Positions 16,687 through 43,445 of a stretch of 64,000 nucleotides of DNA are shown here, piece after piece. The stretch's first letter is position 1. Every line of letters starts with the position of its first letter. The notes below the pieces were generated by a model. It did no database searches, was not told the origin of the DNA, and worked only from the letters and a program-made list of their open reading frames with translations. The stretch covers positions 100,045 to 164,044 of the forward strand of contig JAUCBJ010008050.1 in NCBI GenBank assembly GCA_032718475.1. The letters run 5' to 3'. Position numbers and translations under genes: made by a program. This stretch comes from Nemertoderma westbladi (Eukaryota; Animalia; Xenacoelomorpha).

Positions 16687-17860
16687 TGTAAAAGCTTTTG
16701 CGTAATTAACCGGTTATTCTCCCGTAAAGTACTCTGTAGTTGGTTTACCAGGCAGAAAAAGGCCGTGTCCTTACTGTACTGGTGTTTTAGAGGACATAAA
16801 AGTCATTTCTTCTGTATTTGTACTTTAGAGGACATAATCCGCAATCTCGTGACGCAATAAGCTAGATCCTCTTGAAAACAGTGTCGCTACCATGACGACG
16901 GCTAACAGCTGATATTGCCACGTCGACATTTCTTTGTTTCTTTGTTCTCTCGTTGCTCGGTCGACCAATCAGAGCGTTTTTTGTCTCTGTGTTGGAGTTG
17001 GATACAGAAACTCAGTAGTTCAGTGTTATCTTTTTGCCCAGAGCCTAAGAACGTCGGCTTTTGGCACCTCCGTGTTTCAGTCTTTAGCTTAACATTAGTA
17101 GGCTTAATTATAGAACGTATATCCGTTATCTTACTCAACAAACCGAGTTATCATACAAAAACTCAGTTAACTCACTTAATAATCATTCATACCTTAACTT
17201 TACTGCTTTTACTGTCGGTTATTCATTATATTGGTTGATGAAATATTATATCGGAATACTGATCAATAGTCAGACACCCCACCTTCTTGATATACTAAAG
17301 GTTAGAGAGACCGGTTACAGATAAACGATTGCGACCTATGTTAAGTGGTTTGAAGTGAATCTAATGCTGTTTCATAGGCCCGACATAAATTGTATGTTGC
17401 TCTCTTTATACGTGACTAAATTTAGTGAAGGTCGGCAGATTAGTGTGCAGTATTGTGCAGCATTGTGTATGATTGTAACTGATAACAAAGCATCTCCTAA
17501 AGAATGCGCCATATACGTGAATCTATAGCCTTTTCGTTGTGTCTAGTTTAAGTCATAACTCTGTTTACATATTTAGAGCGCCACGTCCTAAAGGAACTGT
17601 TAATATTTCCCGAAAGTGAATAATATTTGTCAGAGATTATATATAACGATCAGTCGAATAATACGGTAGGCTTACACCATCAATCATTAAGCTTCCGAAT
17701 TCAGTTTCCCGGGTATATCCAGCGGGTGAATGATTGCGCATAGACTGGCTTCGGCTAATGTAGTGTATCAAATACTCGTCATAGGCTAAAGACTATATAT
17801 CATCTAAAAGACATCCTAATTTGGCAGGTTAAACTGTCAAAGGTCTTAAAAGCGCAAACA
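16687..17860 (+). repeat. 5' LTR of BEL/Pao copy 1 (1174 bp)
   Basis: Direct repeat of 34158-35350; differs by a 19-bp indel and about 4 substitutions seen by eye. Confidence 0.96.
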
Positions 17861-18159
17861 ATAACAGATATTGCTTCTGGATTGCGGCGTATGCAATTAA
17901 GTCTAAAGTACCGGTACCGGTCGAACGGTAACCTGTACTGCTGTAACCAGTAGGCCTGACTGCCTGATCATCCGAACCGGTACTTACAGTACAGGTACAG
18001 CAGTATTATTCGATTTGATTATTATATACCGGTAGGTCTTAATAATTAATCGGGGACGCCTGGTTTTTATTGGGATTTTACTTAGGCCTATTTCTGTCAG
18101 TTTTATTTATTTGTAAGCCAGTATTGAGCAGAAGGCGTGTAAGCCTGCTCAGATTGTAC

Positions 18160-20072: not shown

Positions 20073-23000
20073 ATGTCTGATACTAAGCAGAACCTGTCAG
20101 ACAGTTTATTAGATGTAACTATCTGCGACTCAGATAAGGGTGTAGAACCGTCTACACCTAAGTTCAGTTCACCTCCCACTGTGAGGAAGGTCATCCCTCC
20201 AGTAGTAATAACAGAACCGAGGCTGGTCCAACATCGTAGGTCTATCATAGGCACTCGAGCTCAGGTCAAGCGGGACCAAGACGCAGCGGAACAGCAACAA
20301 CCCGCGAGCCAAGAACTTATTTCTCAGCGGCCCGACAGCTCCAGTAGTGAGGATACTGTAGAGCTGACACCCGAGCGCGGAGCAAGGATGACGGATGCGG
20401 TTTATTCGGATCCCCTTCTCATCCTTCCTGCAGCCGTACTCACTAGGTTATTGATTGCGGTGGAAGAACACCAGATCGATTGGGCGAGAAGTAAGCGATC
20501 AACTAAAGATAGTTATGAGGGATACACAAGGGAAGAACTGAAGTCTATGGTCGAGTCGCAATGGAACTTCCCCGGACCCGGACTCCCGTTTGATTTATCA
20601 GAAGCTGCCTGGGAAGACATACACCGGATGGGAGTAGCCAAGGAAACCATCGATCCAGCTGTGTGGAAGAGGTCCGCAGCCGGATACGCACAGGGATTCT
20701 TCAGCTCTATGGAGCGAGTAAAAGAACAACTGTTTCAACAACCTCAAGGACCTCAAGAGCAGGGACAACTGCTTTATCAAGTTAGAGAAAGAATTCTGCG
20801 AATTAGGCTAATCTTATCGGCCTTTGAGGAGGCTTCTAAAAGAAGACAAGACACGTCGTTGCAAGTTGCCGTAAAGACTTGGTTTCAACGGGTGAGTCTC
20901 CAAGTTCAAGGAACGGCTCAGTGGAAAGCTCAGCTGGAGGAGCGCTCAACCCATGGAGAATCAACAGACGCTACTTTTTCCCAAGTGGAAAGTGAAGCGA
21001 CGGCAGAGAACCCGCATAAGAGGGATGCCATTGATATCTATCTGTCAGACTATCAACGTTTCTTAGGTGATGAAGAGTTGAGGAGAAGGTTGGATGGACT
21101 TAACCCTAATAGTGAAGGAGCACAGCGTGTGCTTGACGCCATCGACGTGGATAGGTTAGCGGCGAACCAAGCTAAATTCGATGAACAACTCCGCATCGCT
21201 AGAGACCAAGAAGAAAAGGTGAAGAAAAAACGCATAGAAGACAGAAAGAAAGCAGCAGTAGCAGCTGCAGAAGCCGAAAGGAAAGCAGCCGAAGAGGAAA
21301 GTAAAGCAGCCGAAATGGAAAGAAAAGCGGCAGCGGCAGCGGCAGAGGCAGAAGCGAAAAGAAAAGCGGCAGCGGCAGAGGCAGAAGCGAAAAGAAAAGC
21401 AGCCGAAATGGAAAGAAAAGCGGCAATGGCAGCGGCAGAAGCAGAGCGGATAGCGGCTGAAGAGATCGCCCAATTAGAATTGGAAAATATTCAGGAGAAT
21501 CAAGACTGCATAAATAAACAGTTAACAGCTAGTAATATGCAGATGATGAATCGATCTACTCCCAAAAGACAGGGATATACATCATCTGAGGAAGGCGATA
21601 CAACAGATCCTGAAGGCGGAGGAAATAGATCTCGTTCCAGTAGGCGTAGAAGAACGCCCCACCGTCAGAAATTGCCTAATTTGCCCCCAGCTGTGAGAAG
21701 GCAACTAGCTAGCACAGACTTAGGTAGTACAGAACCCACAGACCAAATTATTAGAGTAGAAAGACTCCCTACTATAGTAGATGAGCCTGAAATAATTAGG
21801 CCTGTTCTCGAAGCCACCCCTTCTGTGATAGAGACCCCTGTACTTCCAGAACCTAACTCTAAATTCCCTTTACACAGTACTAAACTACCTGTATCCAGTA
21901 GGACAGTTCCTCAGTCAACTCCGGTCCTGGATGCCGAGCGAGACATTAACAATTTGTCACCCGTCGTCCCTCGTCTACCCGCTACTATGTTGGCGGCTCC
22001 CGCTTCGGCGGTAGAGTGGGTGGATGAGCGACCGCGGGGGATGGATATTCTCCTCGGGCAGATGGAGGAGAATCAGGCACGCTCCTCCCAGCAGGTCCGA
22101 GAGTTGGAGGGGACTGTTCAACAGTTAAGGGGAACAGTAAGAGAGAGTAGGTTAGAATTGCAGGAAGTGCAGCAGAGTATCGCGTTAGAACGCGATAAGT
22201 TAGTAAATCTACAAAAGGGTATACCACCACCCTCTGTAACAATGTGTCAACCTGTTAGGTCTGAAGTATTTCATGCGCAAGGTGTGGAGCCTACACGCAT
22301 CTATACTGCTAGTGAAGTAGAAACTCCTATAGTAAACCCTATTAAGGGTAATTATAAACCTGTTGACAATGATATTCCATATAGACCTGATCATAATCCG
22401 AGAAATTTATATACCGATAACTCGATATTAAATAACACGATGGCCCAAGAAAGTTTTACGCGTCAAATGGCTAGAACCGAAGCCCGTCAAGCGGTAAAGG
22501 TGAGAGAGATTGTCAAGTTCAACGGAGATGAGATGAAATGGTTACCTTTTAATGAATATTATAAAGATAACATACAGAACTCTGTGCTATCTAACGGAGA
22601 GAAACTTAGATTCCTCATCGAGTGCTTGGAAGGATCTCCCAAGTTAATGGCGTTAAAGTTTATTGGACATCCAGATGGATTAAGACAAGTTTGGGATTCA
22701 CTAAACATCAGGTATGGTAATAGGAATAACATAGCTAAGTATTTGTATGCGAAATTGGTAGCGCCCCGAAAGTTTCTTAGCACCGGGATTATAGAATTTT
22801 CCGATGAGATCCAGGAGATTTGTAGACAATTAGATTGGCTAGGTAAGTCTCATGAGTATCAGAGTTCTATGGTTATTGGAGCTGTAGCATCTACCTTGCC
22901 AAAGGGTGGAGTGGGTACTCATTGGGACAAAAGAGTTCTGTATATGATGGAACAACAACGAAGATACCCTACCATGGCTGATCTCCTGTCATTCTTAGAT

Positions 23001-25232
23001 GGAGAGGTAAAATTACAGCTCCTAAAGCAGTCCAGAGAGAAGACACCGGAAAATAAGGTAAGTGAGAAACCCGTTTCTAGGAGAAAGGTAACACCAGTGT
23101 GTTATACAGACGACGGCGAAAGCCAGGCCTCTCAAGAGGAGAACAACGGGAAAGACACCGAAAGATCTTACTATGTCAACAAAGCGCCTAAGGACGTAAG
23201 TAAATTTAAGTCTCGAACTAGTGACAGGAGAGAACAGGTAACAAAAACTCCTCCTACGTCTCCCAAGAGAATTCAGGTGAGAAAGCCCGAAGAAAAAACA
23301 AGTGTGCACAATGTTACGCAAAATAAGGTAAGTAACATCAAACCGAAATGTGCGCTATGTGATGGGACCCATCGCTTGAATATGTGTGATGAATTCCTAA
23401 AGAAATCATTAACTGAGAGACGTGAAGTCATGTGGGATAAGCGGTTGTGTTATAATTGCCTCAGACAAGGACACCAATGGCGAACCTGTTACTCTAACAC
23501 AAGATGTGCCAAGTGCGGTGCGAAACATCATATCTTGTTGCACACTGAATTCGAGCGAAATAGTGCGAGTCAGGTAAGTGATTCCGAATTACATGTCCAA
23601 TTCAGTGATGTGAACGACACTGATCAATCTGAGATGGAAGGATTCTATACGGACGAGTTCTCCGACGAAAACGAATCCTGTTACACGATAAATACCACAG
23701 TGTATCGAGCACTCACGTATGAAAAGGATATGGACAGCGACCTCACCCTAACTACTTCTGATCAACAACCATTTTGGAAAGCGCCAACTTCCAATGTAGG
23801 GATTAGAGAATTTCCTGTGGTACAGGTAAGGGTCCACGGACCAAAAAGGAGTTATGTAGTGAACGCCCTCCTTGACTCCGGTAGTACAGGAACATTCATC
23901 GACAAAGAGCTAGCCGAAGACATATTCGCTGGACAACCCAAGTTCCGAACTAAGCTAAACATGTCAGGAATTATGCAGGTTTGGAAATCTACAGTAACAG
24001 CGGATTATTATGTAGGTGCGTTGTCCACCCCCCAGGACGAACTAGGAGAACATAGCATAAGATCAGTGAAAATGGTGGCTATAAAGAACTTCGCTACTAC
24101 TCAAGCAGACCTTTATAATTGGGACGAGGATGAGAGCATCCAACATCTTAAGATACCTCGATTCCAGACTGATTATCCTGGAGTGCAAATACTCATCGGC
24201 CAAAACGCGCATGAGGCGCTCGAGACATTGGAGAAACGGCCTGCTCAACCGCAGCCACTACAAACCTATGCGGTAAGAACTAGAGTAGGTTGGTACTTTA
24301 CTGGCCCTTCCCGTAGAACTCTCATGGAAAGATTACCGAAAGATCAGGTATATCAAGTGCGAGAATGGGAAGTTGAGAACAGTGAGTTTGACGATCCAGC
24401 TGAGGGAACTCCATACTCCTCAGACAACGACGATATACATCAACTCTTCGATGAGGAGAATGCCATCGATCTCCTTGAGGAAAGCGAGACTTGGCAAAAT
24501 CAAGTGAACTTATGTCAACTCCTTCTCCCATCCGAGCGAGACGACTATAACGACGAGCTTAATGACGTCATTGAACGTTATAATGCCAAGACTCGGGATG
24601 AACACGCCGTAAGATTCTTTACTCAAGAGGTTGTAGAGCCCAACTCCTACGATAAGGCCCTATCGGTGGAGGAAGAAAGAGCCAAGCAGATCCAAGCGAC
24701 AACTACTCGTTTTCTTAAAGATCAAGGTAGATATGAGATCGGACTTCCTTTCCGAAAGCGAGAACCAAAGTTCATTAACAACAGACCTTTGGCAGAGAAA
24801 AGAATTGCTCAACTACATCGACGTCTTACGGCAAATTCTTCAGCTAAAGAAATGTATCAAACGCAGTTGAAGAAGTTTATTAGCAAGGGATATGCGGAGC
24901 TAGTACCGGAAGAAACACCTATAACTGAGAGAACGTATTATTTAACTCACCATTACGTTCCCAAACCCGGTAAACCCCATGAAGTACGAGTGGTGTTTGA
25001 CGGTTCCGCCCTTTATATGGGCCAATCTCTTAATTCTGAATTGTTACCCGGACCCAACTTACTCCAATCCTTGTTGGGAATACTATTAAGATTAAGACAA
25101 TACTCCATTGCTTTCGCCTCAGATATAGAAGGCATGTTCTTACAAGTCAAAGCGCTGGGTAGGGATCGAGATAGCCTACGATTTTTGTGGTGGCCTGAAG
25201 GAGACCTCAATAAGAAACCTGTGGAGTACTGA
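20073..25232 (+). CDS. gag-pol: BEL/Pao Gag-protease-RT N-terminal polyprotein, ending at a premature TGA
   Basis: ATG at 20073 (conserved in copy 2), long coiled-coil N-terminus, DUF1759-like capsid (FNGD..KW..F...LSNGEKL.FL), three zinc knuckles (CALCDGTH..C, CYNCLRQGH..C, CAKCGAKHHILLH), protease ALLDSGS, RT start (RVVFDGS, LNSELLPGP, DIEGMFLQV). Confidence 0.92.
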   Translation: MSDTKQNLSDSLLDVTICDSDKGVEPSTPKFSSPPTVRKVIPPVVITEPRLVQHRRSIIGTRAQVKRDQDAAEQQQPASQELISQRPDSSSSEDTVELTPERGARMTDAVYSDPLLILPAAVLTRLLIAVEEHQIDWARSKRSTKDSYEGYTREELKSMVESQWNFPGPGLPFDLSEAAWEDIHRMGVAKETIDPAVWKRSAAGYAQGFFSSMERVKEQLFQQPQGPQEQGQLLYQVRERILRIRLILSAFEEASKRRQDTSLQVAVKTWFQRVSLQVQGTAQWKAQLEERSTHGESTDATFSQVESEATAENPHKRDAIDIYLSDYQRFLGDEELRRRLDGLNPNSEGAQRVLDAIDVDRLAANQAKFDEQLRIARDQEEKVKKKRIEDRKKAAVAAAEAERKAAEEESKAAEMERKAAAAAAEAEAKRKAAAAEAEAKRKAAEMERKAAMAAAEAERIAAEEIAQLELENIQENQDCINKQLTASNMQMMNRSTPKRQGYTSSEEGDTTDPEGGGNRSRSSRRRRTPHRQKLPNLPPAVRRQLASTDLGSTEPTDQIIRVERLPTIVDEPEIIRPVLEATPSVIETPVLPEPNSKFPLHSTKLPVSSRTVPQSTPVLDAERDINNLSPVVPRLPATMLAAPASAVEWVDERPRGMDILLGQMEENQARSSQQVRELEGTVQQLRGTVRESRLELQEVQQSIALERDKLVNLQKGIPPPSVTMCQPVRSEVFHAQGVEPTRIYTASEVETPIVNPIKGNYKPVDNDIPYRPDHNPRNLYTDNSILNNTMAQESFTRQMARTEARQAVKVREIVKFNGDEMKWLPFNEYYKDNIQNSVLSNGEKLRFLIECLEGSPKLMALKFIGHPDGLRQVWDSLNIRYGNRNNIAKYLYAKLVAPRKFLSTGIIEFSDEIQEICRQLDWLGKSHEYQSSMVIGAVASTLPKGGVGTHWDKRVLYMMEQQRRYPTMADLLSFLDGEVKLQLLKQSREKTPENKVSEKPVSRRKVTPVCYTDDGESQASQEENNGKDTERSYYVNKAPKDVSKFKSRTSDRREQVTKTPPTSPKRIQVRKPEEKTSVHNVTQNKVSNIKPKCALCDGTHRLNMCDEFLKKSLTERREVMWDKRLCYNCLRQGHQWRTCYSNTRCAKCGAKHHILLHTEFERNSASQVSDSELHVQFSDVNDTDQSEMEGFYTDEFSDENESCYTINTTVYRALTYEKDMDSDLTLTTSDQQPFWKAPTSNVGIREFPVVQVRVHGPKRSYVVNALLDSGSTGTFIDKELAEDIFAGQPKFRTKLNMSGIMQVWKSTVTADYYVGALSTPQDELGEHSIRSVKMVAIKNFATTQADLYNWDEDESIQHLKIPRFQTDYPGVQILIGQNAHEALETLEKRPAQPQPLQTYAVRTRVGWYFTGPSRRTLMERLPKDQVYQVREWEVENSEFDDPAEGTPYSSDNDDIHQLFDEENAIDLLEESETWQNQVNLCQLLLPSERDDYNDELNDVIERYNAKTRDEHAVRFFTQEVVEPNSYDKALSVEEERAKQIQATTTRFLKDQGRYEIGLPFRKREPKFINNRPLAEKRIAQLHRRLTANSSAKEMYQTQLKKFISKGYAELVPEETPITERTYYLTHHYVPKPGKPHEVRVVFDGSALYMGQSLNSELLPGPNLLQSLLGILLRLRQYSIAFASDIEGMFLQVKALGRDRDSLRFLWWPEGDLNKKPVEY

Positions 25233-26675
25233 ATGACCATCCAAGCCTTTGGGATAATCTCGAGCCCTTCAAACGCCTGTTCCGTGGTGCGCACTACTGC
25301 GGATGACAACCGAGACGCCTTCTCTAAAGAGGTGATCGAGGAGGTCGCTAAAGGAACGGTAGAATGCTTAAAGAAAGGTGGATTTCGACTAACTAAATTC
25401 ACTAGCAACTCCCGTGAGTTTCTGGAGTCGATCCCGGTAGAAGATCGAGGAACAAAAGACCTAGATCTAATAAAGGATGATCTCCCAGAAACTAAGACCC
25501 TTGGTTTGAAATGGGACACAGAAAGAGATATCCTGTTTTTCCAATTAAAACAGCGAGATAATCCAGTTCGGACTAAACGGATTTGTTTAAGTATCCTGAG
25601 CACTTATTTCGATCCATTGGGATTTATTAGCCCAGTTATATTGATTGCTCGGAGTTTAGTACAACAAATGTGGCTTGAAAACCACTCATGGGACGATCCA
25701 CTTAAGGGAGAATTATTATTAAAGAAGTGGATGAAATGGGAAGATTCTCTACCAGCCATCGAAAACTTTATAATTTCCCATTCATATTTTGGTCATGTTC
25801 TCCCTACATATTCATATCAACTCCATGTGTTTGGAGACGCCAGCGATATGGGAATAGGTATAGTAGCCTACCTAAGGGTGGAAACTCCGGACGGAATCAA
25901 AGTCGCCTTGGTTACCTCTAAGGCATTGATAAACAACAAGTTGAAAGTTCCTCGAGCGGAGTTAAAAGCGGCTCTATACGCTACAGCCATCGGCCGGAAT
26001 GTAACAGAACAGATCGACTATCCCCTGGAGAAAACTGTCTATTGGACCGACGCTTTACTCGTGTTGGAGTATATAACCAATGAAGTCTGTCAGTTCAGCG
26101 TCTTCGTTACCAACAGAGTAGCTATTATACTCAGTCGCACGACGATGGATCAATGGAGACATTGCCCCGGAACGATTAATCCAGCGGACATCGCTTCCAG
26201 GGGAGCAACTCCACAAGAACTGGTAGATACTCCAGACTGGTTAGGTGGACCCGACTTCCTCTACAAAGAAGAAGAAGAATGGCCTCCTCATCTTACTACA
26301 GCAGAGATTAGACAGGCCAAGGGAGCGGAGAAAGTCAAACCTAAAACTCAGGCGAGTAAATCGAAGTTATTCAAACCCACAGTAGATCTGTCTGTACTAC
26401 ATACTTCCGGAGACGACGCTTTGGATCAGAAACCCACAGCTACAAATAAACCCGTTGTGGAAATCCGTGATAAGGATTGGAAATCTGGCATACCAGACAT
26501 CTCGCAAGGACTCTCACCTCTTCTGCAGAGAGCGATGCATCACTACAGTTCCTGGAATCGGCTTTGTAAGGCCGTGACATATTTAAAGAGATGTTTTCAC
26601 CATCACTACTCTGGGTTGAAAACAAAGGGTGATACCGCTCGCTCCAATCACATCAGTGCAGGTCCATGTTATTAA
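25233..26675 (+). pseudogene. pol: BEL/Pao pol segment: RT C-terminus lacking YVDD, plus RNase H-like (Peptidase_A17) domain
   Basis: In frame with the upstream ORF across TGA (EY*M, probably CGA>TGA). AFG..SSP is followed by GGFRLTKF with no YVDD; FDPLG, LHVFGDAS, PRAEL, YWTD and NPADIASRG are present. Confidence 0.88.
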
Positions 26676-28185
26676 AGACCCTCCCAGATATAAGATACCC
26701 GACAGGTTTCTGAAGGAGAAGATCAGTTATCAGGAGCATGAAGAAACCAACAAACAGATGCTGAGACTCTTACAATGCGATGAGGATTCCGATAAGTATT
26801 TCCTGTTGTTGAGAAATCCACAGATGCGCTTAAGGGATCGCTTCTCTAGCACAATGATAGATGGGTTGATACGTGTTGGAGGAAGATTAACGAATGCCCC
26901 ATTATCCTTTGATACTAAGTTCCCCATACTCATTAGAAATCTTGAAATACAAGTCAAGATGATTGTAGATGTTCACAGCAAACTTTATCATGCTGGTAGA
27001 GAACGAGTTCTTAGCGAAATTCGAACTCGCTATTATTTTTATAAACCCCGTAGAGCTCTGAACCAAGTTCTTAGGAACTGTATACCCTGTAGGAAAGCAT
27101 TCAGTAGGCCTTTAACACAGAGAGAGGCAGAATTACCTAGGGAACGAGTAAGCTTTTATGAACCACCCTTTACTAATACCGGTGTGGATTTATTTGGCCC
27201 TATCGAAGTATATCGTGCTAGGACTATAGTCAAGAGATGGTGTGTAATCTTTGTTTGTATGACTTGTAGAGCCATCCATCTCGATATGGTGAACGATTTA
27301 TCTACCAACAGCTTTTTATTAAGCTTGCGACGACAGATCGCTCGCTTTGGCACTAGTAACACGATGAGATCTGATAAGGGAACAAATTTCATTGGTGCCA
27401 ACAATGAAATCAAAGCTTACGTCAAAGATTGGAACCAAAGACAGGTGGACGACCAACTACGAGTAACAGCGTCTAGTTGGACCTTCAACGCCGCCGACGC
27501 CCCTTGGTGGGGAGGAAGTTGGGAGAGATTAATAAGAAGTGTGAAGACAGCATTTCATTTTATAGTGCCTTGCCGCGCTTATCTCACCGACGAACTTTTG
27601 CGGACGTTAATGGAAGAAATTGCCGCCTATCTCAACGAGAGACCGCTTATGCCAGTCTCATCGAGTCCCGATTCCCTGGAGGCGCTAACACCCGCGCACT
27701 TCCTACTGAAGAAACCTGTAGCCATGCTCCCACAATCGGAAATCACAGACGGAGACGAATACTGCCGACAAACTTGGCAACTCATGCAGTTGTTATCCCG
27801 TCGTTTCGCTGACCATTTCGAAAAACATTATCTGCCCACGCTACAACTTCGAACTAAGTGGTTTGCGCAGCAAGAAAACGTCAGTGCTGGAGACATGGTT
27901 CTTATTGTGGATGTGGATCTTCCACGTAAGCGGTGGCAGACAGGTCGTATAATCGAGACGCACATCTCGGATGACGGTTTGGTGCGATCGGTAGAACTCG
28001 TCGTCATGCGACGTAACTTTAAGAAACCGGGAATTGTCTTTGAGACGCAGCAGCTCAATCGCCCAGTTGGTCGCTTATGTTTACTGGAAAGAGACAGAGA
28101 ACTCTCCGGAAACTATGGGAGACAAGATACTCTTCCCACGACCACCTCCCTAATCCAACAAACATCTAGGGACTCCCCAACTTAA
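26629..28185 (+). CDS. pol: BEL/Pao integrase, frameshifted relative to upstream pol
   Basis: IRVGGRL, HHCC zinc motif (H...HAG...CIPC), DDE core GVDLFGP / SDKGTNF / GGSWERLI, LNERPL, LTPAHFL, terminal RPVGRL. Confidence 0.9.
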   Translation: MIPLAPITSVQVHVIKDPPRYKIPDRFLKEKISYQEHEETNKQMLRLLQCDEDSDKYFLLLRNPQMRLRDRFSSTMIDGLIRVGGRLTNAPLSFDTKFPILIRNLEIQVKMIVDVHSKLYHAGRERVLSEIRTRYYFYKPRRALNQVLRNCIPCRKAFSRPLTQREAELPRERVSFYEPPFTNTGVDLFGPIEVYRARTIVKRWCVIFVCMTCRAIHLDMVNDLSTNSFLLSLRRQIARFGTSNTMRSDKGTNFIGANNEIKAYVKDWNQRQVDDQLRVTASSWTFNAADAPWWGGSWERLIRSVKTAFHFIVPCRAYLTDELLRTLMEEIAAYLNERPLMPVSSSPDSLEALTPAHFLLKKPVAMLPQSEITDGDEYCRQTWQLMQLLSRRFADHFEKHYLPTLQLRTKWFAQQENVSAGDMVLIVDVDLPRKRWQTGRIIETHISDDGLVRSVELVVMRRNFKKPGIVFETQQLNRPVGRLCLLERDRELSGNYGRQDTLPTTTSLIQQTSRDSPT

Positions 28186-28736: not shown

Positions 28737-29065
28737 TAATTCTAGTCGATTAAGATATCGCGGCACCCACCGATATACTTGAAAGACAAAATTCTAGAAT
28801 TAGTGGTTAACGTCCCCAGACAAGTTCTGGAATAAACTGGTGCCCATCCTAAATATTAATTATTAATATTTACAAAATTCTGTCAAATATCAGATCCTTT
28901 AAAATTCTAGTCGATTAAGATATCGTAGCACTTACCGATACTCTTAAAAGGACAAAATTCCTAGAATCAAGGATCCCAGTCCCCAGACACGTTCTGGAAT
29001 AAAATTGTGTCTATTTAACGTTAAATAATAAAATTTACGGGAATAAGTTTAAATTCAGATATTTC
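28737..29065 (+). repeat. Two tandem ~165-bp units in the pol-ORF2 spacer
   Basis: aattctagtcgattaagatatcg...gtccccagaca.gttctggaataaa at ~28738 and ~28903; also duplicated in copy 2 (~42580-42910). Confidence 0.85.
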
Positions 29066-29825: not shown

Positions 29826-32800
29826 ATGACTGAATTGATAGAAGATGATCTTGGTATCAGGGAGCGATATACTCTACCTTTACAAGCGTTTGTCGATAGC
29901 CTGATACGCGGCGACGCTGGTCCAACTACTACGGAGGATGATGGTCGTTATATCGAACCGCCAATGTCCCCGGAGCAACTTACGCGTGAATTGGATTATA
30001 GAAAGTTCACCGCTCGCTATACGCATCGTAATGGTACGTATATGGACTTCTTAACTACCGGTCATCCTATCGATTTACACGACACGGACGATGTGGATAC
30101 CGAAAGGGAAATGGTTTTATTTAAATATCATACCCAGCGGAATCGGAACGATAAGCCAAGAATAGAACACGAGAACTCTATTCGAAACAGACTCGAAAGA
30201 GAAGACGTTGAAGAGCCGGATAAACGCAACGACTTCAACGATTATCTGGAATTCTTGAGAGAAACATACCTCAATATTGCCAGTCAACAAAATCTCGAAA
30301 CTCGATATCCTCAAGGTATACATCATGATCCTATGATAGAACTCAAACGACTCTATTTCACTATGATGTATCTTACCGCCGATCGACCGCTACCTGTTGT
30401 CCCAGATAGCTTCGAACAGATGGAGGAATATTGTAAAACTGGAGAACGATCACCCGCGTTTCCTCTGCAGGACGTGCGTCTTTGGTATTACTGCGACGAA
30501 TGCCCTAGACCCAATCAGCAAACGGAAAGACATAAACATCCGCGGAGACGTTGCGCTAAACACAGTTTTACACGATATACTTATGGGAGTTTCGAGCGAA
30601 ACCTTTTCGACGTGTCCCCTGCGGTCGCTCGACTCAAGCGATCCTTGAACAAACCGATGATCAGAGTTCCGGAATACTCGGTCAGACCTCCGCATTCCTT
30701 AGTCAGACCTCAAACTCTTGACCCTAATAGTATCACGGATCCTCCCGAACTGTACTCACTGTTCAAAGATCTAGTGTTACCCGAACAGTTGATCGGTGGC
30801 ACTCCAATAGTAGGCTCACGGGACATTCGCCAACCCTACCTAGCTGGATTGGGACGTGGTCATCTAATATCGCCGTTTAACCCATACAACCGTCCCGGCT
30901 TCACCTCTATCCAACCCGTTACGGAAGTCGAAGAGAGCGTCGTACGAAACGCATTAGATGCTATTCGGCAGAAAATCGGAAAGGGAACGTACGATTGTTT
31001 GGAGAAGCGTAAATTGCAGCAACAAGTCCAAGCGGTGAAGGAATTAGCTTTACCCCAGTTCGATAGAGAAATACAAAATCTCGAGGAGGACATCGAACGT
31101 GGACGAACCTACTCTTTACAAGAGTTTCTAGATGAGCGTCTACAACAACAAGCGGAGGAGAATCAGCTCGAGGAGAGACATATAGAACTGGATGAGAGAG
31201 AAGAAGCGGTTTTAGCTCAACCCGAAGCGCAAATCCTTATGACGGATCTCTACTCTAAAACCATTCTTCATCCCTCGATGGTTCCCCATTTCGGAGACAA
31301 GCTTTTTGCGACGGCACAACCCCAACCGGTTGATATCAACCTAAGATCTCGAGATCTTATCGCCGACGCTCCTCTGTTGCAGCGTCCGCCCATCGAATCC
31401 GCTCGTGTCGATGGTATACTCGTTGAACCTCCGGACAATAGAGCAGATCTTGTCCGTCGCATGGTACACGATGTAAACATACGCGCTAGACCTTTACCGG
31501 ACTCGTTTTACGGGATCAAAGATCACCCTTATTACGTCAATCTAAAACAATATTACATGGTAAAACCGGAAGATCCTACACATAGTCTGAAGTTTCTACC
31601 GCTAATAAATCCTCTCGATCTTGTCGAACTCGAACAACTGCAGAAACATCTGGATCAGTTAGTTAAAGTAAACTCATTTCGAAAACCATATAATGTTTCC
31701 AGAATAGAGAAAGAAACAATACCTCCGTATAATCTTGATGGATTCATCAAAACTCGTTTAGTGCACTGGAATCTTGATGTGTTATTCGAGGAGGAAAGAA
31801 TACAACGATATGGAGATGAGGAAACACATACCACACAATATTTAAAGTATAAAGACCTGCCTAATGCTAGCGAATGCGCTACCTTGTGGCATCCTGTAGG
31901 AATGACACTAGAAAACGCCACAAAGGAGTGGAACGAAACTCTTAACGTTATCGAGATGTATGGAGTTGTCACTTACGATAACGAAGGTAGCGTTCCGGTT
32001 GGAGAACTTGGAACTACGCGGATGATACACATACGAGGACTCGCTGGTTCTACCCACGTATTTACTCGAGCGTGTTCCGACGTGATTGATTATTCTTTTG
32101 AAACTCTTACTGAGACACAAAAGAAACTCCGACATGGACAATTTGAACTCGCGCAGCGTTACGTCACCGACACCGAGCGCAAACCGGCCATGGGTATCGA
32201 TGGATCGATGTTACCCCAACCCGTGCTCGAGATGTTGTTTAACGAAAGAATCCTTAAAATCGGCTCAGCTGTTTATGGAGACCTACAGAACGACTTTCGG
32301 AATATGGAGAACATTCCATACCCCTTCGTTGATACTCAGCTGATTGCTCCTTGGGCAGAAGGCCGAGGTTTCTTCCGCACTATGTATGCCAATACACCCA
32401 GCGGAATTACTAAAGTACAACGAACCTCCATCGGACATCTTGCCTTTCAAGCATACGGATGGAATTTCAAGGTTGGAAATCCTATAAATTACCAACAAGT
32501 ATACGGAGATCATTATTCTCGTTTATACTTTGATGGACCATTGACCGCACCTGGCGCCGTGTATAGCTTTATGAGTGTTCCACTTCGTCCCTCCTTAGCT
32601 ATATACACGATCTTTGAAAACGCAGCACTTGCCGGTTGGCTAGCCGATGTGTGCAGTCGTACCATACGCGCCCATCCCTTAATACTCGGAACCAAACTCG
32701 CCAAGTTAGATGAACACAATAAATTCATCCGCTTTGAATGTTTCAGGCGCTTTCTGACTCCGTTCCGTAACGTTGATAGTCAGTTCAAGGACCGCGCTCT

Positions 32801-34079
32801 GACCAAACTCAGCCTGAGAGACTCAGCGGCGGAGAAGCTAAACAGCGCGGGATTTGCCCTTTTTCAGGACGTTTGTATACAGAACTTACATTCATCTGTT
32901 ATACAAAGACCCCGAATACCCACGGGTTATTCTGTCGTCGAAGTTCAGACAGTGGGTCCGCTTGCGGAGACAGCCGCACCTACCTCAGCTATGCAATTGG
33001 AAGACGAACCAATATGCTTAGAAGCTGAAGCGATTCAGCCTACAGCGCCCCGGAGCAGCGATAACGACTACGTCTTAGAGTGGTATCAAGGTCCACAATG
33101 TCTCACCGCATACGATTATCGACACGCTAACTATGTTTCTCGAAAACGTTGTCGATTATGCGCATCGAGAGACCATTTCACCCCTATGGACTCAGACGTA
33201 CCCTGCTCCTATTTCCACGAACAACCGATGATGGAGATATATTGTGCGTATTGCAGACTTAATAACTCTCATATTTTTGCAGTCTGCCCCCAATTTATGA
33301 CTCAATGCCACCACTGTCAACTTAAAGGACATGCCAGTTATAATTGCCCCTTTAATCACGATTTAGAGAGCGTAGATGAAATGATTACCCTGCGCTACAT
33401 CCGAGCTTGGGAAGCGAACGCGGATTTACATTGTGAGTCCCGTCATCGATACTACCCTGGACGCTCTTACGAGGGAGTTTACGCGTTCCATCCTTATTTA
33501 TTAGCGTCTGTGGAACAAAAAACACGCATACCGAGTTACGAGCTAATGAAGCGTGTTGGTGAGTGTATTTCCACTAAATTTGTTCGAAGATACCTTAGGA
33601 ACGTCATTCCTAACGATATTACTTCATACCATTTGATCAATTATATCCGTCAAGACCCTGAGTATGGCGATTTATTTATCAACTCGCACCCTGAGTTACA
33701 GGAAGTATCTCGACGGCCCTACGAATATCGAGCCCGAGAACGCGAGCTGGAAAGAACTATTAAACCAAGGAAGTTTCTCACCACTCACGGTCCACCTACC
33801 GCCGTTGTCCAGACGACCCGTCAAGGACCAGTAGGAGCTGCTGTCCTAAGACGCGCCTTAAAGGCCGTTAGACCTCGCTCCGCTGAAGTTGATATCGATC
33901 AACCAGGTACCTCGACCGGCGGATACACCGATCGCAATCCGAAACCTTCTGATGCAATTGTATTGCACCCTTCACCCAGGAGTTACAGCCCTCCTAGTAA
34001 AGTGGCTCGCCCCAAAGAGAAAAGGACTCTTGCTAGCCTCAAAAAACTGCGTAAACGCCGTCCGCGTAAGAAAGACTAA
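29826..34079 (+). CDS. Retrotransposon accessory ORF2 (1417 aa): DEDDy-type 3'-5' exonuclease domain + zinc knuckles + basic C-terminus
   Basis: Intact ORF between integrase and PPT. ExoI VVTYDNEG; LPQPVLEMLFNERILKIGSAVYGD (ExoII); FVDTQ; SIGHLA...YG; PL....IYTIFE (ExoIII-like). Knuckles CRLC...H, CAYC..H..C, CHHCQLKGHASYNC; C-terminal KKLRKRRPRKK. No signal peptide or TM segment. Confidence 0.85.
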   Translation: MTELIEDDLGIRERYTLPLQAFVDSLIRGDAGPTTTEDDGRYIEPPMSPEQLTRELDYRKFTARYTHRNGTYMDFLTTGHPIDLHDTDDVDTEREMVLFKYHTQRNRNDKPRIEHENSIRNRLEREDVEEPDKRNDFNDYLEFLRETYLNIASQQNLETRYPQGIHHDPMIELKRLYFTMMYLTADRPLPVVPDSFEQMEEYCKTGERSPAFPLQDVRLWYYCDECPRPNQQTERHKHPRRRCAKHSFTRYTYGSFERNLFDVSPAVARLKRSLNKPMIRVPEYSVRPPHSLVRPQTLDPNSITDPPELYSLFKDLVLPEQLIGGTPIVGSRDIRQPYLAGLGRGHLISPFNPYNRPGFTSIQPVTEVEESVVRNALDAIRQKIGKGTYDCLEKRKLQQQVQAVKELALPQFDREIQNLEEDIERGRTYSLQEFLDERLQQQAEENQLEERHIELDEREEAVLAQPEAQILMTDLYSKTILHPSMVPHFGDKLFATAQPQPVDINLRSRDLIADAPLLQRPPIESARVDGILVEPPDNRADLVRRMVHDVNIRARPLPDSFYGIKDHPYYVNLKQYYMVKPEDPTHSLKFLPLINPLDLVELEQLQKHLDQLVKVNSFRKPYNVSRIEKETIPPYNLDGFIKTRLVHWNLDVLFEEERIQRYGDEETHTTQYLKYKDLPNASECATLWHPVGMTLENATKEWNETLNVIEMYGVVTYDNEGSVPVGELGTTRMIHIRGLAGSTHVFTRACSDVIDYSFETLTETQKKLRHGQFELAQRYVTDTERKPAMGIDGSMLPQPVLEMLFNERILKIGSAVYGDLQNDFRNMENIPYPFVDTQLIAPWAEGRGFFRTMYANTPSGITKVQRTSIGHLAFQAYGWNFKVGNPINYQQVYGDHYSRLYFDGPLTAPGAVYSFMSVPLRPSLAIYTIFENAALAGWLADVCSRTIRAHPLILGTKLAKLDEHNKFIRFECFRRFLTPFRNVDSQFKDRALTKLSLRDSAAEKLNSAGFALFQDVCIQNLHSSVIQRPRIPTGYSVVEVQTVGPLAETAAPTSAMQLEDEPICLEAEAIQPTAPRSSDNDYVLEWYQGPQCLTAYDYRHANYVSRKRCRLCASRDHFTPMDSDVPCSYFHEQPMMEIYCAYCRLNNSHIFAVCPQFMTQCHHCQLKGHASYNCPFNHDLESVDEMITLRYIRAWEANADLHCESRHRYYPGRSYEGVYAFHPYLLASVEQKTRIPSYELMKRVGECISTKFVRRYLRNVIPNDITSYHLINYIRQDPEYGDLFINSHPELQEVSRRPYEYRARERELERTIKPRKFLTTHGPPTAVVQTTRQGPVGAAVLRRALKAVRPRSAEVDIDQPGTSTGGYTDRNPKPSDAIVLHPSPRSYSPPSKVARPKEKRTLASLKKLRKRRPRKKD

Positions 34080-34157
34080 CTGTTTAGAGTATTTTTATAT
34101 TTTAGAAACTGTGATTTGTTATATTTTATAGACTTAAATCCCATTTTCTGGGAGCGG

Positions 34158-35350
34158 TGTAAAAGCTTTTGCGTAATTAACCGGTTATTCTCCCGTAAAG
34201 TACTCTGTAGTTGGTTTACCAGGCAGAAAAAGGCCGTGTCCTTACTGTACTGGTGTTTTAGAGGACATAAAAGTCATTTCTTCTGTATTTGTACTTTAGA
34301 GGACATAATCCGCAATCTCGTGACGCAATAAGCTAGATCCTCTTGAAAACAGTGTCGCTACCATGACGACGGCTAACAGCTGATATTGCCACGTCGACAT
34401 TTCTTTGTTTCTTTGTTCTCTCGTTGCTCGGTCGACCAATCAGAGCGTTTTTTGTCTCTGTGTTGGAGTTGGATACAGAAACTCAGTAGTTCAGTGTTAT
34501 CTTTTTGCCCAGAGCCTAAGAACATCGGCTTTTGGCACCTCCGTGTTTCAGTCTTTAGTTTAACATTAGTAGGCTTAATTATAGAACGTATATCTGTTAT
34601 CGAATCATACCAAACTTATCTTACTCAACAAACCGAGTTATCATACAAAAACTCAGTTAACTCACTTAATAATCATTCATACCTTAACTTTACTGCTTTT
34701 ACTGTCGGTTATTCATTATATTGGTTGATGAAATATTATATCGGAATACTGATCAATAGTCAGACACCCCACCTTCTTGATATACTAAAGGTTAGAGAGA
34801 CCGGTTACAGATAAACGATTGCGACCTATGTTAAGTGGTTTGAAGTGAATCTAATGCTGTTTCATAGGCCCGACATAAATTGTATGTTGCTCTCTTTATA
34901 CGTGACTAAATTTAGTGAAGGTCGGCAGATTAGTGTGCAGTATTGTGCAGCATTGTGTATGATTGTAACTGATAACAAAGCATCTCCTAAAGAATGCGCC
35001 ATATACGTGAATCTATAGCCTTTTCGTTGTGTCTAGTTTAAGTCATAACTCTGTTTACATATTTAGAGCGCCACGTCCTAAAGGAACTGTTAATATTTCC
35101 CGAAAGTGAATAATATTTGTCAGAGATTATATATAACGATCAGTCGAATAATACGGTAGGCTTACACCATCAATCATTAAGCTTCCGAATTCAGTCTCCC
35201 GGGTATATCCAGCGGGTGAATGATTGCGCATAGACTGGCTTCGGCTAATGTAGTGTATCAAATACTCGTCATAGGCTAAAGACTATATATCATCTAAAAG
35301 ACATCCTAATTTGGCAGGTTAAACTGTCAAAGGTCTTAAAAGCGCAAACA
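34158..35350 (+). repeat. 3' LTR of BEL/Pao copy 1 (1193 bp)
   Basis: TGTAAAAGC...GCGCAAACA, preceded by a polypurine tract. Confidence 0.96.
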
Positions 35351-36269
35351 GGGGGGGGGGGGGGGGGGGGTTTGTTGGGTTAAAACATCCGGTCATGTAA
35401 CAGGTTACATCGTAAGTAAAAGTAAATTATAGATTATTAAGAGTGATTAATTATAAATTCATAATGACAATGGTTGGTGTTGGCAATACCACCTTCTGGC
35501 TCCAGGAGTCGAGGAAATCCAGCCAAGCACTGATCTAGACTTTGCTGAAGACTTAGAAGCATTCTCAGTATCACTAGAGGGAGACCAACAGCTTCTCGGT
35601 TCATTATAACAGGCTGCGTCTAGTGTTGGTTATACAGTTACACAGTTAATACAGTTAAAACAGTAATACAGTAAGTTATACAGTTAATTTCGAAAGTCCT
35701 CAGGAAAAATATCTAGTAAGTGTATGAGCATAATCAATTTCAAATGAATGCGCATGTTTGAGCATGTGGACGACTTTATGTTACCTGGAATCATGGATCA
35801 GGTGAAGGAGGACGTGACACCCCCCCCCCCCCCCCCCCCCCCCCCTCTAAGATCTACAACTTTTATCGAAAACGTCGAATTTTTTGTAGATTTCATTAGT
35901 CTGAATCAGAACGAGAAAAACAATTTTCGAAAAATTGACTGAGGTGGTTATTTTGCAGTACCAAAATTTCAATCGGTGAACAATAATTTTCTAAAAATTG
36001 AAAGTTTCAATTTTCGGCTAATCGTTTTTCAATACAGGTTTTTCCGGGGCGCAAAATCCATTGGAAAATATTTAAAAATTATTTGATTATTATAAATGGC
36101 AGTTTAAGTCATCTACGTTGGCAAAAAAAATAAAAAACAAGAAACCAGGACTTTTCAGTTTGAACACGAAAATTTCAATTGACTTATACGATGTAATAAA
36201 TTCAAATTTTTAGGTTTTCTGGGGCGTTGATACATTTCTAATTTTTCAGATCATTGCTAGTCGTATTTT

Positions 36270-39072: not shown

Positions 39073-40305
39073 TGTTCGCGCTTTTGAAGACCTTTAGCAG
39101 TTTAACCTGCCAAAATTTATATGTCTTTTAGTTAATTAACACACCTTTAGCATACGACAATATTTTATGCTAATACGCAAAACATTAGCCGAAGCCAGCC
39201 CATGCGCGATCATTCACCCGATGGATCTACACCCGGGAGGCTGAATTCGGATGCTTAGATTTTATTATTGCAGTGTAAGGTTGCAGTGTAAACCTATTGT
39301 ATTATTCGATAGATCACTAATATGTAATTTCTGACAGATATTATTAACTTTCGGGAAATATTAACAGTTCCTTTAGGACGTGGCGCTCTATCTATTTAAA
39401 CAGAGCTAGGACTTATACTAAACGCAACGATAAGGCTTATGATTAAAGTATAAGTCGCATTCTTTAGGAAATGCTTTGTTACCAGTCACATCACACTCAC
39501 AATCATGCACACTATTCTGCCGACAGTCAGTATATTTGATCACACATAAAGAGAACAGCAATTGACTCAGGTAGTGTCTACTAAATAACATTAGATTCAA
39601 TACACACCACATTGATATAAATCGCAATTGTTATATATAGCCCGCCTCTCTAACCTGTAGTGTATCAAGAAAATTGGGAATTTTGGGTGATTTATCCGTA
39701 TTCTCCAAAGAGCAATATTTCCATCAACAAATAGATACAATTAATAACTGACGGTAAATAGCAGTACAAACAATATGATTAGTGCAGTTAAATTAAGTGA
39801 GGTAACACCGCCGGTAACAGTTATACTTTCTATAATCTAAGCAGTTTACTAGAGTTCTTCCCAAAAAGCCGGTGTTTCTGGCTTAGACAGCAATAACAAC
39901 AAAGTATCAAGTAAGGCAGTAAGACTGAACACTCTCCTTATGATCGGCTGAAAAGCTACACGTCGACAGGAAAAATCGCTCTGATTGGCTCAAGCCAAAC
40001 AAAGAACCATGCATCCAATGGCTGTTTCCATGTCAGCAACCAGCTGTTAGATGTCGTAATATGAATCATCACGGCTAAGCTGTGAAAGGTAGTTGGTGCA
40101 TTACAGGTTTTTTGCCTTACCATGTCCGCCAAAACACGTATATAGCAGAATGACTTTTATGTCCGTTAAAACACCTGTAACGGTACCTTGCGGGCGAGGG
40201 GAATATATATACAGTTAGAGAACCTTTTTAGAGTATTCCAGCGCCTGGGGGGAAACTGGATTGCGAAGCAAAAGGGGCCAGTTATATCCCACAGAAGCTT
40301 TTACA
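39073..40305 (-). repeat. 3' LTR of copy 2
   Basis: Direct repeat of 50025-51257; TGTAAAAGC...GCGCGAACA on the minus strand. Confidence 0.96.
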
Positions 40306-40383
40306 CCGCTCCCAGAAAATGGGATTTAAGTCTATAAAATATACAAAATCACAGTTTCTCAAATACGAAAATACTCTAAACAG

Positions 40384-41833
40384 TTAGTCTTTCATGCGCG
40401 GACGGCGTTTACGCAGTTTTTTAAAGCTAGCCAGAGTCTTTTTCTCTTTGGGGCGAGCCACTTTACAAGGAGGGCTATAACTCCTGGGTGAAGGGTGCAA
40501 CATGATTGCATCAGAGGGTATAGGATTATGGTCGGTGTATCCGCCAGTCGAAGTGCCGAGTTGATTGACATCAACGTCGGGGGAGAGGGGTCTAACGGCT
40601 TTGAGAGCTCGTTTCAAGACAGCCGCTCTTACGGGTCCTTTACGAGTGGTCTGAATGAGGGCCGTGGGTGGACCATAGGCAGTTAGAAACTTCCTTGGTT
40701 TAATGGTTCTTTCCAACTCGCGTTCGCGGGCTCGGTATTCGTAAGGCCGTCGATATACTTCCTGTAACTCAGGGTGTGAGTTAACAAACAATTCTCCATA
40801 GTCCGGATCCTGACGGATATGATTGATTAAGTTATAGGAATGAAGGTCGCTAGGATTAACACTCCTGAGAAATTTGCGTACGAATTTGGTTGAAATACAT
40901 TCTCCGACGCGCTTCAGTAGCTCGTAACTTGATATGCGTGATTTCTGTTCAACCGAAGCGAATAGATAAGGATGTAACGCATAAACTCCTTCGTAAGCGC
41001 GTCCGGGATAATAGCGATGGCGCGAATCACAATATAAATCAGTGTTCGCTTCCCAAGCTCTAATGTAACGTAGTGTGATCATTTCATCTACGCTTTCCAA
41101 ATCGCGATTAAAAGGGCAATCGAAACTGGCGTGTCCCTTTAGTGGACAGTGGTGACATTGAGTCATAAATTGAGGGCAAACCGCAAAAATATGCAAATTA
41201 TTAAATCTGCAATACGCTCAATAAATTTCCATCGCCGGTTGTTCGTGGAAATAGGAACAGCGGACGTTTGTGTCCATGGGCGTAACATGGTCTCTCGATG
41301 CGCATAACCGACAACGTTGCCGAGAAACATAGTTGGCATGGCGATAATCGTACGCAGTGAGACACTGTGGACCTTGATACCATTCTAGGATGTAATCGTT
41401 GTCGCTGTTCCGAGCGCGATAGGCTGAATCTCCTCAGATTCTAGGCATATTGGTTCGTCTTCCCAGTCTGTTACGAATAGAATTTTCGTGATCTATTCTC
41501 GGTTTATCGTTACGACTCCGCTGGGTATGATATTTAAATAGAACCATTTCCCTTTAGGGTGTCTACATCGTCCGTATCATGTAAATCGATAGGATGGCCG
41601 GTAGTTAAGAAGTCCATATACGTACCATTACGATGCGTATAGCGAGCGGTTAATTTTCGATAGTCCAATTCACGCGTAAGTTGCTCTTGGGACATCGGCG
41701 GTTCGATATAACGACCATCGTCCTCCGTAATAGTCGGATCGGCTTCACCGCGTATCAAGCTATCCACAAACGCTTGTAAAGGTAGAGTATATCGCTCTCT
41801 AATACCAAGGTCATCTTCTATTAATTCCGTCAT
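40384..41833 (-). pseudogene. Deleted, frameshifted copy of accessory ORF2
   Basis: N-terminus MTELIEDDLG.. (41534-41833) and C-terminus ..KKLRKRRPR (40384-41196) match ORF2. At ~41465 ENSIRNRL is joined to EDEPICLE, a ~2.8-kb deletion that removes the exonuclease. Confidence 0.92.
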
Positions 41834-43445
41834 ATCTGCTATCTGAGTTTATTAATATTAGTATGAGTCAATATTTAGGCAAGCGGGCGTCGCTGCCTAC
41901 TAGTCTTTGACCCCGGACAGTGGGTTTCTCAGCGCCGATGTACCGTTGTCGCGGTGTTTGCGCCAACATGTAGCAACAGCACGACAACGATAATCGACAC
42001 AAGTCCCACCACTGTCCGTCCCAAAGGCTTGAATCCACTTGAGGTTATCTCGGTAGAGTTAGGCTACTTTACAATTGCGATTAGCTACTGTAAACACACT
42101 TTAGTAGTATCATTCACCTATAAACTCACAAATTCCATACAATCATTACTTACTGCACACATGCAAGCCATTTTGTCCGTTAGTCATTGTCTTCCAGAAT
42201 GTCACGTTATTACTATGTATCCTTGGATACTAATAGTGCGCTAGGTATACTCTTATGCTACGCAATGGGGCAAGCTTTTATTTGTCCTTTAACTTGTTTC
42301 TAATTCTAGCGTGGGTGTTGCCATGGTGACATTATGGAAAACTAGCGGTAGAATTAGGGTAATTCTCATGCATACAGATCTGGGATGTTATTTAATAGTA
42401 ATTCTTTAATTGTCAATATCCTCTTTATGCATGATTTTATAAATTTTATCGGCTATTGACTATATATTGGAGATTCTCGCACTCTAGTACACTCAATATG
42501 AATCTCCGCTCCCATGATCTATTAATTACTGGAATTTTGGGAATGTTGTAAATTGCACAAAATGACAATTTATGAAATTCATTCGAATATGAATTTAAAT
42601 TTATTCCCGTGAATTTTATTATTTGATGTTAAATTTGACACAATTTGATTCCAGAGCAGGTCTGGGGACATAGGATCCTTAATTCTATGAAATTTGTCTT
42701 TTAAGAGTATCAGTAAGTGCTACGATATCTTAATCGACTAGAATTGTTAACGGATCTGAATTTTACAGATTTTAATAAATATTAAATTAATATTTAAGAT
42801 GGGCACCGATTTATTCCAGAGCTTGTCTGGGGACGTTAACCACTGATTCTAGAATTTGTCTTTCAAGTATATCGGTGGGTGCCGCGATATCTTAATCGAC
42901 TAGAATTACAGATGGTCAAAAGGTTTAACAGATTTATTTGCGTTTTACGCTACTGTTAGAGGGACATCACGCTACTATATGTATTATTTGTTATAAGGTA
43001 GAAGAGCAATATCGCACGAAGCAATGTCAGTGTGAAGAGGCAAGTCGTTTCCAAGGTCTACCCAGAGCTTGGTTTAGCCGAGACACGAGGATCTGAACTT
43101 TGCATTCCTAATACTCTGCCTACCAATAATACTTAAACATAGTAGTGGCTTTATTGTACTTTAATAAGTACGGACATGTCATCTTACTATAGTCTCGCAT
43201 TTATAATATAATACGGACAGTAAGGAAAGAGAAAAGAATTATTTCTCGCCGTCGCACTAGATATATTATGTAATTACGTAATAAACACTAATATATTGCA
43301 CTAATCTACTAAATATTCTAAAATAACATTTTACTAAATAAAATTAAATAAAACGATTATAATAAAATTACATAATAATACATACATAAATATAAAATAA
43401 AAACAAATATAAAACGATATAGTCACACGCCCACTCCACATGCTA

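Follow-up and report, generated by a model that had tools for sequence, protein, structure and literature searches.

The stretch of DNA analysed here (64,000 nucleotides, referred to as the window; positions 100,045 to 164,044 of contig JAUCBJ010008050.1, assembly GCA_032718475.1) comes from the xenacoelomorph Nemertoderma westbladi and contains two related copies of a long terminal repeat (LTR) retrotransposon, elements 1 and 2. Element 1, of 18,665 bp, is a BEL/Pao element, as seen from its LTRs, its gag gene, the order of protease, reverse transcriptase (RT), RNase H and integrase (PR-RT-RH-IN) and its matches to the Pfam families PF05380, DUF1759 and DUF5641. Downstream of the integrase, it carries a third open reading frame (ORF), ORF3, which is a gene under strong purifying selection and whose product appears to combine an RNase D-like domain with three zinc knuckles (Table 1).

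Table 1. Position of the features of elements 1 and 2 in the window (aa, amino acids; nt, nucleotides; PPT, polypurine tract; NLS, nuclear localisation signal; HMM, hidden Markov model)
Feature	Position	Strand	Basis or remarks
5' LTR of element 1 (TG...CA)	16687..17860	+	LTR alignment
gag-protease-partial RT ORF, BEL/Pao type (DUF1759, two zinc knuckles, LLDSG protease motif)	20073..25232	+	stops early inside RT
Remaining RT (no YxDD-type motif detected) and RNase H (PF05380, E 1e-33)	25233..26675	+	
Integrase ORF, in a different frame (PF17921 integrase zinc-binding, DUF5641)	26758..28185	+	Pfam
ORF3, accessory protein, 1417 aa, no internal stop	29826..34079	+	ORF list, selection
N-terminal ~685 aa of ORF3	29826..31880	+	one Cys/His cluster (aa 223-246) and, near aa 400-470, an acidic stretch rich in Gln/Glu
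Predicted RNase D-like (DEDDy-type) 3'-5' exonuclease domain, aa ~695-945	31908..32660	+	~40-aa insertion at aa ~749-788
ExoII block, aa 798-842, statistically secure RNase D match	32217..32351	+	pairwise, custom HMM, NCBIfam
Three CCHC-type zinc knuckles, aa 1109-1174	33150..33347	+	Cys/His pattern
Post-knuckle module	33348..33620	+	conserved with P0121, two copies in P0122
Basic NLS-like tail	34038..34076	+	kept in element 2
PPT-like purine-rich tract, 8 nt	34150..34157	+	adjoins 3' LTR
3' LTR of element 1	34158..35351	+	LTR alignment
Element 2, internally deleted relative	39073..51257	-	99.3% LTR identity; target-site duplication ATGAC (5 bp)
ORF3 remnant of element 2	40384..41833	-	aa 1-125 and ~1058-1417 kept; frameshifted; nuclease region deleted

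The third gene of element 1 and its conservation

ORF3 follows the integrase ORF and stops 78 nt short of the 3' LTR, inside the LTRs, and its frame is open throughout, in agreement with a sequence-only reading of this DNA that had described an intact 4.25-kb ORF between the integrase and the PPT. Comparison of the two window copies gives a ratio of nonsynonymous to synonymous substitution rates (dN/dS) of 0.057 (aa 1-92), 0.048 (aa 94-123) and 0.112 (aa 1076-1417) for the three ORF3 blocks that they share, with p<1e-4 for each block, and 0.094 and 0.151 for the two halves of the last one; the gag-protease value between the same two copies is 0.247. These values of 0.048-0.151, obtained from the comparison across copies that the sequence-only reading had proposed, place ORF3 under purifying selection. 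With regard to the nuclease region, which is absent from element 2, contigs of 4 public runs were compared over positions 31930-32680, where each of the 4 runs covered 29 of 29 bins, without any indel listed at a 30% threshold. Among the 40 best supported of 129 variants, 34 were synonymous (transitions alone would predict 32%), and none changed residues D718, E720, D819, Y927 or E931, the candidate active site discussed below. The run contigs also cover the whole of element 1 (30/30 bins in all 4 runs). Since they span the nuclease region, that domain is present family-wide and, together with the ORF3 ends kept in element 2, this bears out the earlier assignment of ORF3 to the family rather than to a single copy.

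Two other origins of the frame were considered and ruled out, namely a chance ORF, by the selection on ORF3, and a freshly captured host passenger, as ORF3 is intronless, family-wide and constrained. The identity of an env protein was also rejected. A transmembrane segment usually reaches a Kyte-Doolittle mean of about 1.6, and the best 19-residue mean in ORF3 is 1.19; furthermore, a Pfam scan of the window proteins returned no fusogen family. The earlier exclusion of env is upheld with regard to the transmembrane segment, by hydropathy only, no signal-peptide predictor having been applied. The N-terminal ~685 aa had no family match in Pfam or NCBIfam scans, and none of 4 window proteins had an exact match in the protein collection.

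Element 2 is devoid of most of the RT, RNase H and integrase, and its ORF3 remnant is missing aa ~124-1057, the entire proposed nuclease included. The homologue that had been noticed at the same position in this copy therefore retains both ends of ORF3, but its nuclease region is deleted and its frame is broken; as the proposed nuclease is wholly absent there, the remnant supports only the ends of the protein. Two distinct nuclease-removing deletions are seen as joints in run contigs, one at 30194-32999 (X4 and X5), like that of element 2, and the other at 31187-33945 (X1 and X3), pointing to non-autonomous subfamilies. Given that element 2 was recently inserted without the nuclease, the latter is dispensable in cis.

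The two LTRs of element 1 share 98% identity across 1193 columns, and its integrase shares 34-43% with the best 120 BEL/Pao relatives listed. The polypurine tract that characterises Belpaoviridae is present, with the same 8 nt in elements 1 and 2. The element exceeds the 4.2-10 kb given for this family (PMC8742986), which is a descriptive typical range in the profile by ICTV, the international committee for virus taxonomy, and no membership criterion. It is large, yet not 'giant' under the criterion of a 20-kb internal region described in PMC6431247. The copy is broken by a stop in pol at ~25230 and a frameshift before the integrase ORF; a YxDD-type motif was not found in its RT frame, nor was a target-site duplication found at its ends (flanks TTAAT versus a G run). 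No TGG-led primer-binding site lies within 15 nt of the 5' LTR of either element, and the 64-kb window contains no tRNA genes. The first ~45 nt after the 5' LTR (17861-17905 in element 1) differ between the copies, and element 2 shows near 49836-50022 a ~90-nt duplication that repeats its LTR end. Just before element 1 (16191-16686) stands the terminal portion of a related LTR (70-74% identity), and just after it (35352-35371) a run of ~20 G, which possibly reflect a tandem or recombinant arrangement, or an effect of the assembly.

Element 1 also has long untranslated regions, of ~2.2 kb before gag and ~1.6 kb before ORF3, which contain tandem-like repeats of ~290, 120 and 165 nt at 18160-18743, 19696-19928 and 28738-29038, which are retained in element 2. 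The gag region is unusually long, with an N-terminal extension that has (21245-21466) a 21-nt repeat that is Ala/Glu/Lys-rich and probably encodes a coiled-coil.

Evidence for an RNase D-like domain

The assignment of aa ~695-945 to the RNase D-like (DEDDy, PF01612-type) exonucleases is supported by several sequence comparisons. In a pairwise comparison, E. coli RNase D matched with E 0.001, and a blind NCBIfam scan matched 2 of 18,950 families, both of them RNase D, with E 0.0035 and 0.022, far below the cut-off. Custom profiles were built from 80 bacterial PF01612 domains, 20 for each of the RNase D, WRN-like, NrnC and PolA groups. The profile from the RNase D group reached 16.7 bits over aa 798-842 (single-sequence E 2e-7), the pooled PF01612 profile gave 7.7 bits, and the real score was reached by 0/500 block shuffles for both the former (maximum 1.8) and the latter; the WRN-like and PolA profiles were not significant, being matched by 10/500 and 34/500 shuffles, and the NrnC profile gave no match. 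The NCBIfam and custom-profile support rest on one and the same ExoII block. Moreover, in the ESM Atlas 25 of the 30 feature matches of aa 660-990 fell in PF01612 clusters, the best at 0.93 with 175/256 features shared, and the top match overall (0.94) was an unnamed cluster, against a background in which 4-10 of 100 shuffled proteins also attain 0.9 and whose calibration is not for protein parts.

The motifs quoted in the sequence-only reading are all present (VVTYDNEG at aa 714, KIGSAVYGD at 811, FVDTQ at 834, SIGHLA at 868 and YTIFE at 927). Of the DEDDy pattern that it drew from them, the ExoII part is secure and RNase D-like, whereas ExoI and ExoIII are predicted and the ExoIII acid is a glutamate.

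With regard to structure, a single-sequence AlphaFold model had a predicted local distance difference test (pLDDT) score of only 31.6. Seeding with an RNase D alignment raised the mean pLDDT to 62, with ~80-92 around ExoI and ExoII and <50 across most of the insertion at aa ~749-788; strands 2 and 3 were placed at aa 733-747, differing from their placement in the alignment. Foldseek matched the seeded model to EXD2 (E 4.9e-4), RNase D, WRN, Nibbler, Egalitarian and TbRND in the PDB, and to giant-virus and phage 3'-5' exonucleases in BFVD. The structural comparison that had been suggested thus did recover DEDD structures, EXD2 among them, but as the seeding with RNase D rows makes it partly circular, it counts as a check of compatibility only. 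Sequence searches of the PDB gave nothing significant for ORF3 or for a joint profile of ORF3 and its homologue P0121 (RNase D came first for the latter, at E=1), and word-based homologue searches with aa 640-1000 (1876 near-length candidates) and aa 560-1300 (4451 shorter proteins) found none.

A phmmer search of aa 640-1225 against 1.84 billion representative proteins returned two matches, P0121 (648 aa, E 3.9e-7) and P0122 (633 aa, E 3.9e-4), both nameless singleton clusters. P0121 aligns with ORF3 in two places, aa 796-942 (30% identity) and the knuckles. Its segment from the ExoI D-x-E through ExoII is matched by the pooled PF01612 profile (E 3e-6), its ExoIII reads W-x-x-P-L...Q-L-Y-Y-x-x-x-E, with the D-to-E change in common with ORF3, and it carries the same triple CCHC knuckle and following helical module. 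As P0121 shares the exonuclease, the D-to-E change, the three knuckles and the helical module, the ORF3 nuclease represents a small family. The knuckles of P0121 match retroviral nucleocapsid in a PDB search, and its top match in the ESM Atlas, to be taken as a lead only, is a kinetoplastid cluster of RNase D plus CCHC (0.86). In ORF3 itself, the three Cys/His knuckles and the basic NLS-like C-terminal tail that had been described are in place.

The P0122 gene (L168:124-2070) consists of one intronless exon, whose end lies ~30 nt ahead of a GGGGA-TG junction, which resembles a PPT/LTR border and is suggestive of a retroelement; no pol was found on this 3.7-kb contig, on which another ORF (3384-3685) starts 1.3 kb after the gene. 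The ORF3/P0121 profile matched 0/120 of the nearest BEL/Pao polyproteins, polyproteins only, without their downstream DNA. Locus searches of viral contigs with ORF3, P0121, P0122 and the pair alignment found none, ORF3 was not found in metagenome contigs, and a phage tblastn gave one chance match (E=5).

Candidate active site and possible roles

The candidate catalytic residues are D718 (nt 31977), E720 (31983), D819 (32280), Y927 (32604) and E931 (32616). D718, E720 and D819 stand in invariant columns of a 41-sequence alignment, and D718 and E720 lie on a confident strand of the seeded model; the ExoI segment taken alone was matched by 1522/2000 shuffles. A further D-T-E, at aa 783-785, stands too near ExoII and falls inside the low-confidence insertion. 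For ExoIII, two registers have equal P-L-x6-Y spacing, Y927/E931 and Y913/S917. The homologue P0121 prefers the first (ungapped score 21 vs -3), and Y927/E931 appears the likelier ExoIII. No literature was found on the effect of the ExoIII D-to-E change in the Klenow fragment.

The reading put forward here, with a probability of roughly 0.36, is that ORF3 may be an active nuclease that trims RNA in the 3'-5' direction and works in trans, most likely to blunt host RNA silencing. D718, E720, D819 and E931, with Y927, would form a two-metal active site for metal-dependent 3'-5' trimming of RNA, the RNA would be captured by the zinc knuckles as in TbRND, whose zinc fingers increase RNA binding and cleavage (PMC7797062), and the basic tail would mediate nuclear import. 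The protein would act in trans, as element 2 moved recently without the nuclease, and its substrate could, more speculatively, be host small RNAs or their precursors. A host-facing role is favoured because unrelated retroelement classes share DEDDy nucleases, which would suit a benefit that does not depend on the replication mechanism; mechanistically different retroelements with DEDDy ORFs, the LTR elements Juno and Vesta and the Penelope-like Terminons, have been described (PMC5408684). A bolder form of this reading, in which a giant animal BEL/Pao lineage encodes a TbRND-like, knuckle-steered DEDE-y exonuclease that destroys or over-trims host Piwi-interacting RNA (piRNA) or small interfering RNA (siRNA) precursors in trans, as a mobile module spread among distant elements (P0121, P0122), is distinctly unlikely.

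Several observations weigh against an active silencing suppressor. Neither the ExoI nor the ExoIII segment reaches significance by itself in the shuffle test, and Pfam PF01612 does not match the ORF3 domain on its own. Both ORF3 and P0121 have YxxxE in place of the canonical ExoIII Y-x3-D, for which reason ORF3 is classified as DEDDy-like and not as canonical DEDDy. In an alignment with bacterial enzymes, MAFFT chooses Y913, with Ser917 four residues on, and bacterial RNase D fails to separate the two registers (1.4 vs 0.1). In P0122, the exonuclease is degenerate and the knuckle-plus-helix module occurs twice. Furthermore, a low dN/dS would not be expected of a protein engaged in an arms race, and the 2'-O-methyl group at the 3' end of mature piRNAs resists enzymes of this kind. 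Finally, the rotifer DEDDy ORFs have been described as showing no clear link with copy number (PMC5408684).

Two alternatives, both tentative and somewhat doubtful, come close behind this reading. In the first, the RNase D fold is kept with weak or dead catalysis, and ORF3 would serve as an RNA-binding adaptor or decoy that localises or shields the element RNA, in the manner of EXD1, Maelstrom or Egalitarian. The altered ExoIII (YxxxE, or YxxxS in the rival register), the 40-aa insertion between ExoI and ExoII, and P0122, which lost most exonuclease motifs and yet keeps and duplicates the knuckle module, are consistent with such a protein, as is the presence of Egalitarian among the Foldseek neighbours of a model seeded with RNase D rows. 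However, dead exonuclease copies usually lose several catalytic acids, whereas D718, E720 and D819 are kept and the ExoIII acid is found in both ORF3 and P0121 at ~30% identity. EXD1 and Maelstrom provide precedents as inactive DEDD derivatives (PMC5408684).

The second alternative, held to be just as doubtful, is an active nuclease that serves the replication of the element itself, whether it trims the element RNA, matures a non-standard primer, or trims or proofreads the ends of the complementary DNA (cDNA), for an RNA ~2x the usual family length. It would suit the 18.7 kb of the element, against the 4.2-10 kb of Belpaoviridae (PMC8742986), the lack of a conserved TGG-led primer-binding site beside either 5' LTR, the strong purifying selection, as expected of a core step, and knuckles that resemble retroviral nucleocapsid, judging by the P0121 matches; such a role has already been proposed for the rotifer ORFs (PMC5408684). 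Conversely, the domain is absent from the 120 BEL/Pao polyproteins mentioned above, which came without their downstream DNA, ORF3 is separate from pol and has an NLS-like tail, nothing suggests its packaging into particles, and similar nucleases occur on small rotifer elements.

It is highly improbable that ORF3 has no exonuclease fold at all and is an unrelated accessory or env-like protein with coincidental motifs, as the ESM Atlas, the custom RNase D profile and NCBIfam, all independent of the seeded model, lead to RNase D/PF01612, the homologue P0121 does likewise, and there is no transmembrane segment, despite blank results in Pfam, PDB sequences and the two word-based searches and the low pLDDT of the single-sequence model.

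Neighbouring features and comparison with known systems

Outside element 1, the window contains a single open frame of 2311 aa (51370-58305), which begins 113 nt past the 5' LTR of element 2 and combines a pannexin-like/LRRC8-type transmembrane region with many fibronectin type III repeats, and an EF-hand protein (62092-64000) that is open at the window end. Repeats include a self-complementary stretch of ~790 nt (2783-3568, 89% identity), a 21-nt tandem array (4257-4789) and a repeat region with a period of ~160 nt (36300-37008).

Among cellular enzymes, TbRND (Trypanosoma brucei RNase D; PDB 7C42/7C45) resembles ORF3 in that tandem CCHC knuckles come after an RNase D-type exonuclease. TbRND is described as a cellular protein of <400 aa whose four knuckles lie near the domain and which trims the U tails of guide RNAs (PMC7797062), whereas ORF3 is a retroelement protein with three knuckles ~165 aa downstream and no significant PDB sequence match. 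ORF3 shares the ExoII block and the predicted overall fold with the PF01612 proteins RNase D, EXD1, EXD2, Mut-7/Nibbler, WRN and Rrp6, but its scores are far below curated cut-offs, its ExoIII aspartate is replaced by glutamate and it has the 40-aa insertion; no HRDC or helicase domain was detected in it.

Element 1 has the LTRs, gag, PR-RT-RH-IN order, PF05380, DUF1759, DUF5641 and PPT of Belpaoviridae, and its LTR length is at the top of their 0.2-1.2 kb range (PMC8742986). It differs from them in its 18.7 kb, in its nuclease-like third gene, third genes being only env-like in the ICTV profile (PMC8742986), and in that a canonical primer-binding site is not seen. The word 'exonuclease' was not found in the main text of a BEL/Pao survey (PMC3118150), a check that did not extend to its family tables and supplements, and no literature report was found of an exonuclease ORF in BEL/Pao or of an architecture of the ORF3 type, in a search that left out Repbase and Dfam. 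Where calls conflicted, that survey describes keeping elements of 2-15 kb, so that those as long as element 1 may be under-sampled.

ORF3 defines a new protein family, with an exonuclease-like domain, a triple knuckle and a conserved module, of which a compact fragment can be assayed. The role of retroelement nucleases has been presented as an open question since 2017 (PMC5408684), and no functional study of them was found in the literature. If the enzyme does act on small RNAs, it would represent a direct enzymatic counter-measure of a retrotransposon to animal silencing.

The closest known systems are found in bdelloid rotifers, where Rodriguez, Kenefick and Arkhipova reported in 2017 ORF3s with a DEDDy exonuclease in the Juno and Vesta LTR retrotransposons and in Athena/Terminon elements (PMC5408684). 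The rotifer extra ORFs mentioned in the sequence-only reading are thereby confirmed; for the nematode elements that it also mentioned, the word 'nematode' was not found in the main text of that paper. The rotifer proteins are described as having a DEED pattern and putative activity (PMC5408684; reviews PMC6431247, PMC5718144). As in the element studied here, the ORF of Juno and Vesta is separate, follows pol, is not env, and encodes an RNase D-like exonuclease with no transmembrane domain, non-canonical acids and putative activity. The host elements differ, being Juno and Vesta there and BEL/Pao here, as do the acids, DEED there and DEDE here and, as far as the comparison by description goes, the 1417 aa, the ~685-aa N-terminus, the three CCHC knuckles and the conserved post-knuckle module set ORF3 apart from the rotifer proteins. 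The nuclease-like ORF3 is new in its host family, its size and its architecture, and it extends the non-env nuclease ORF3s known from rotifer elements to BEL/Pao.

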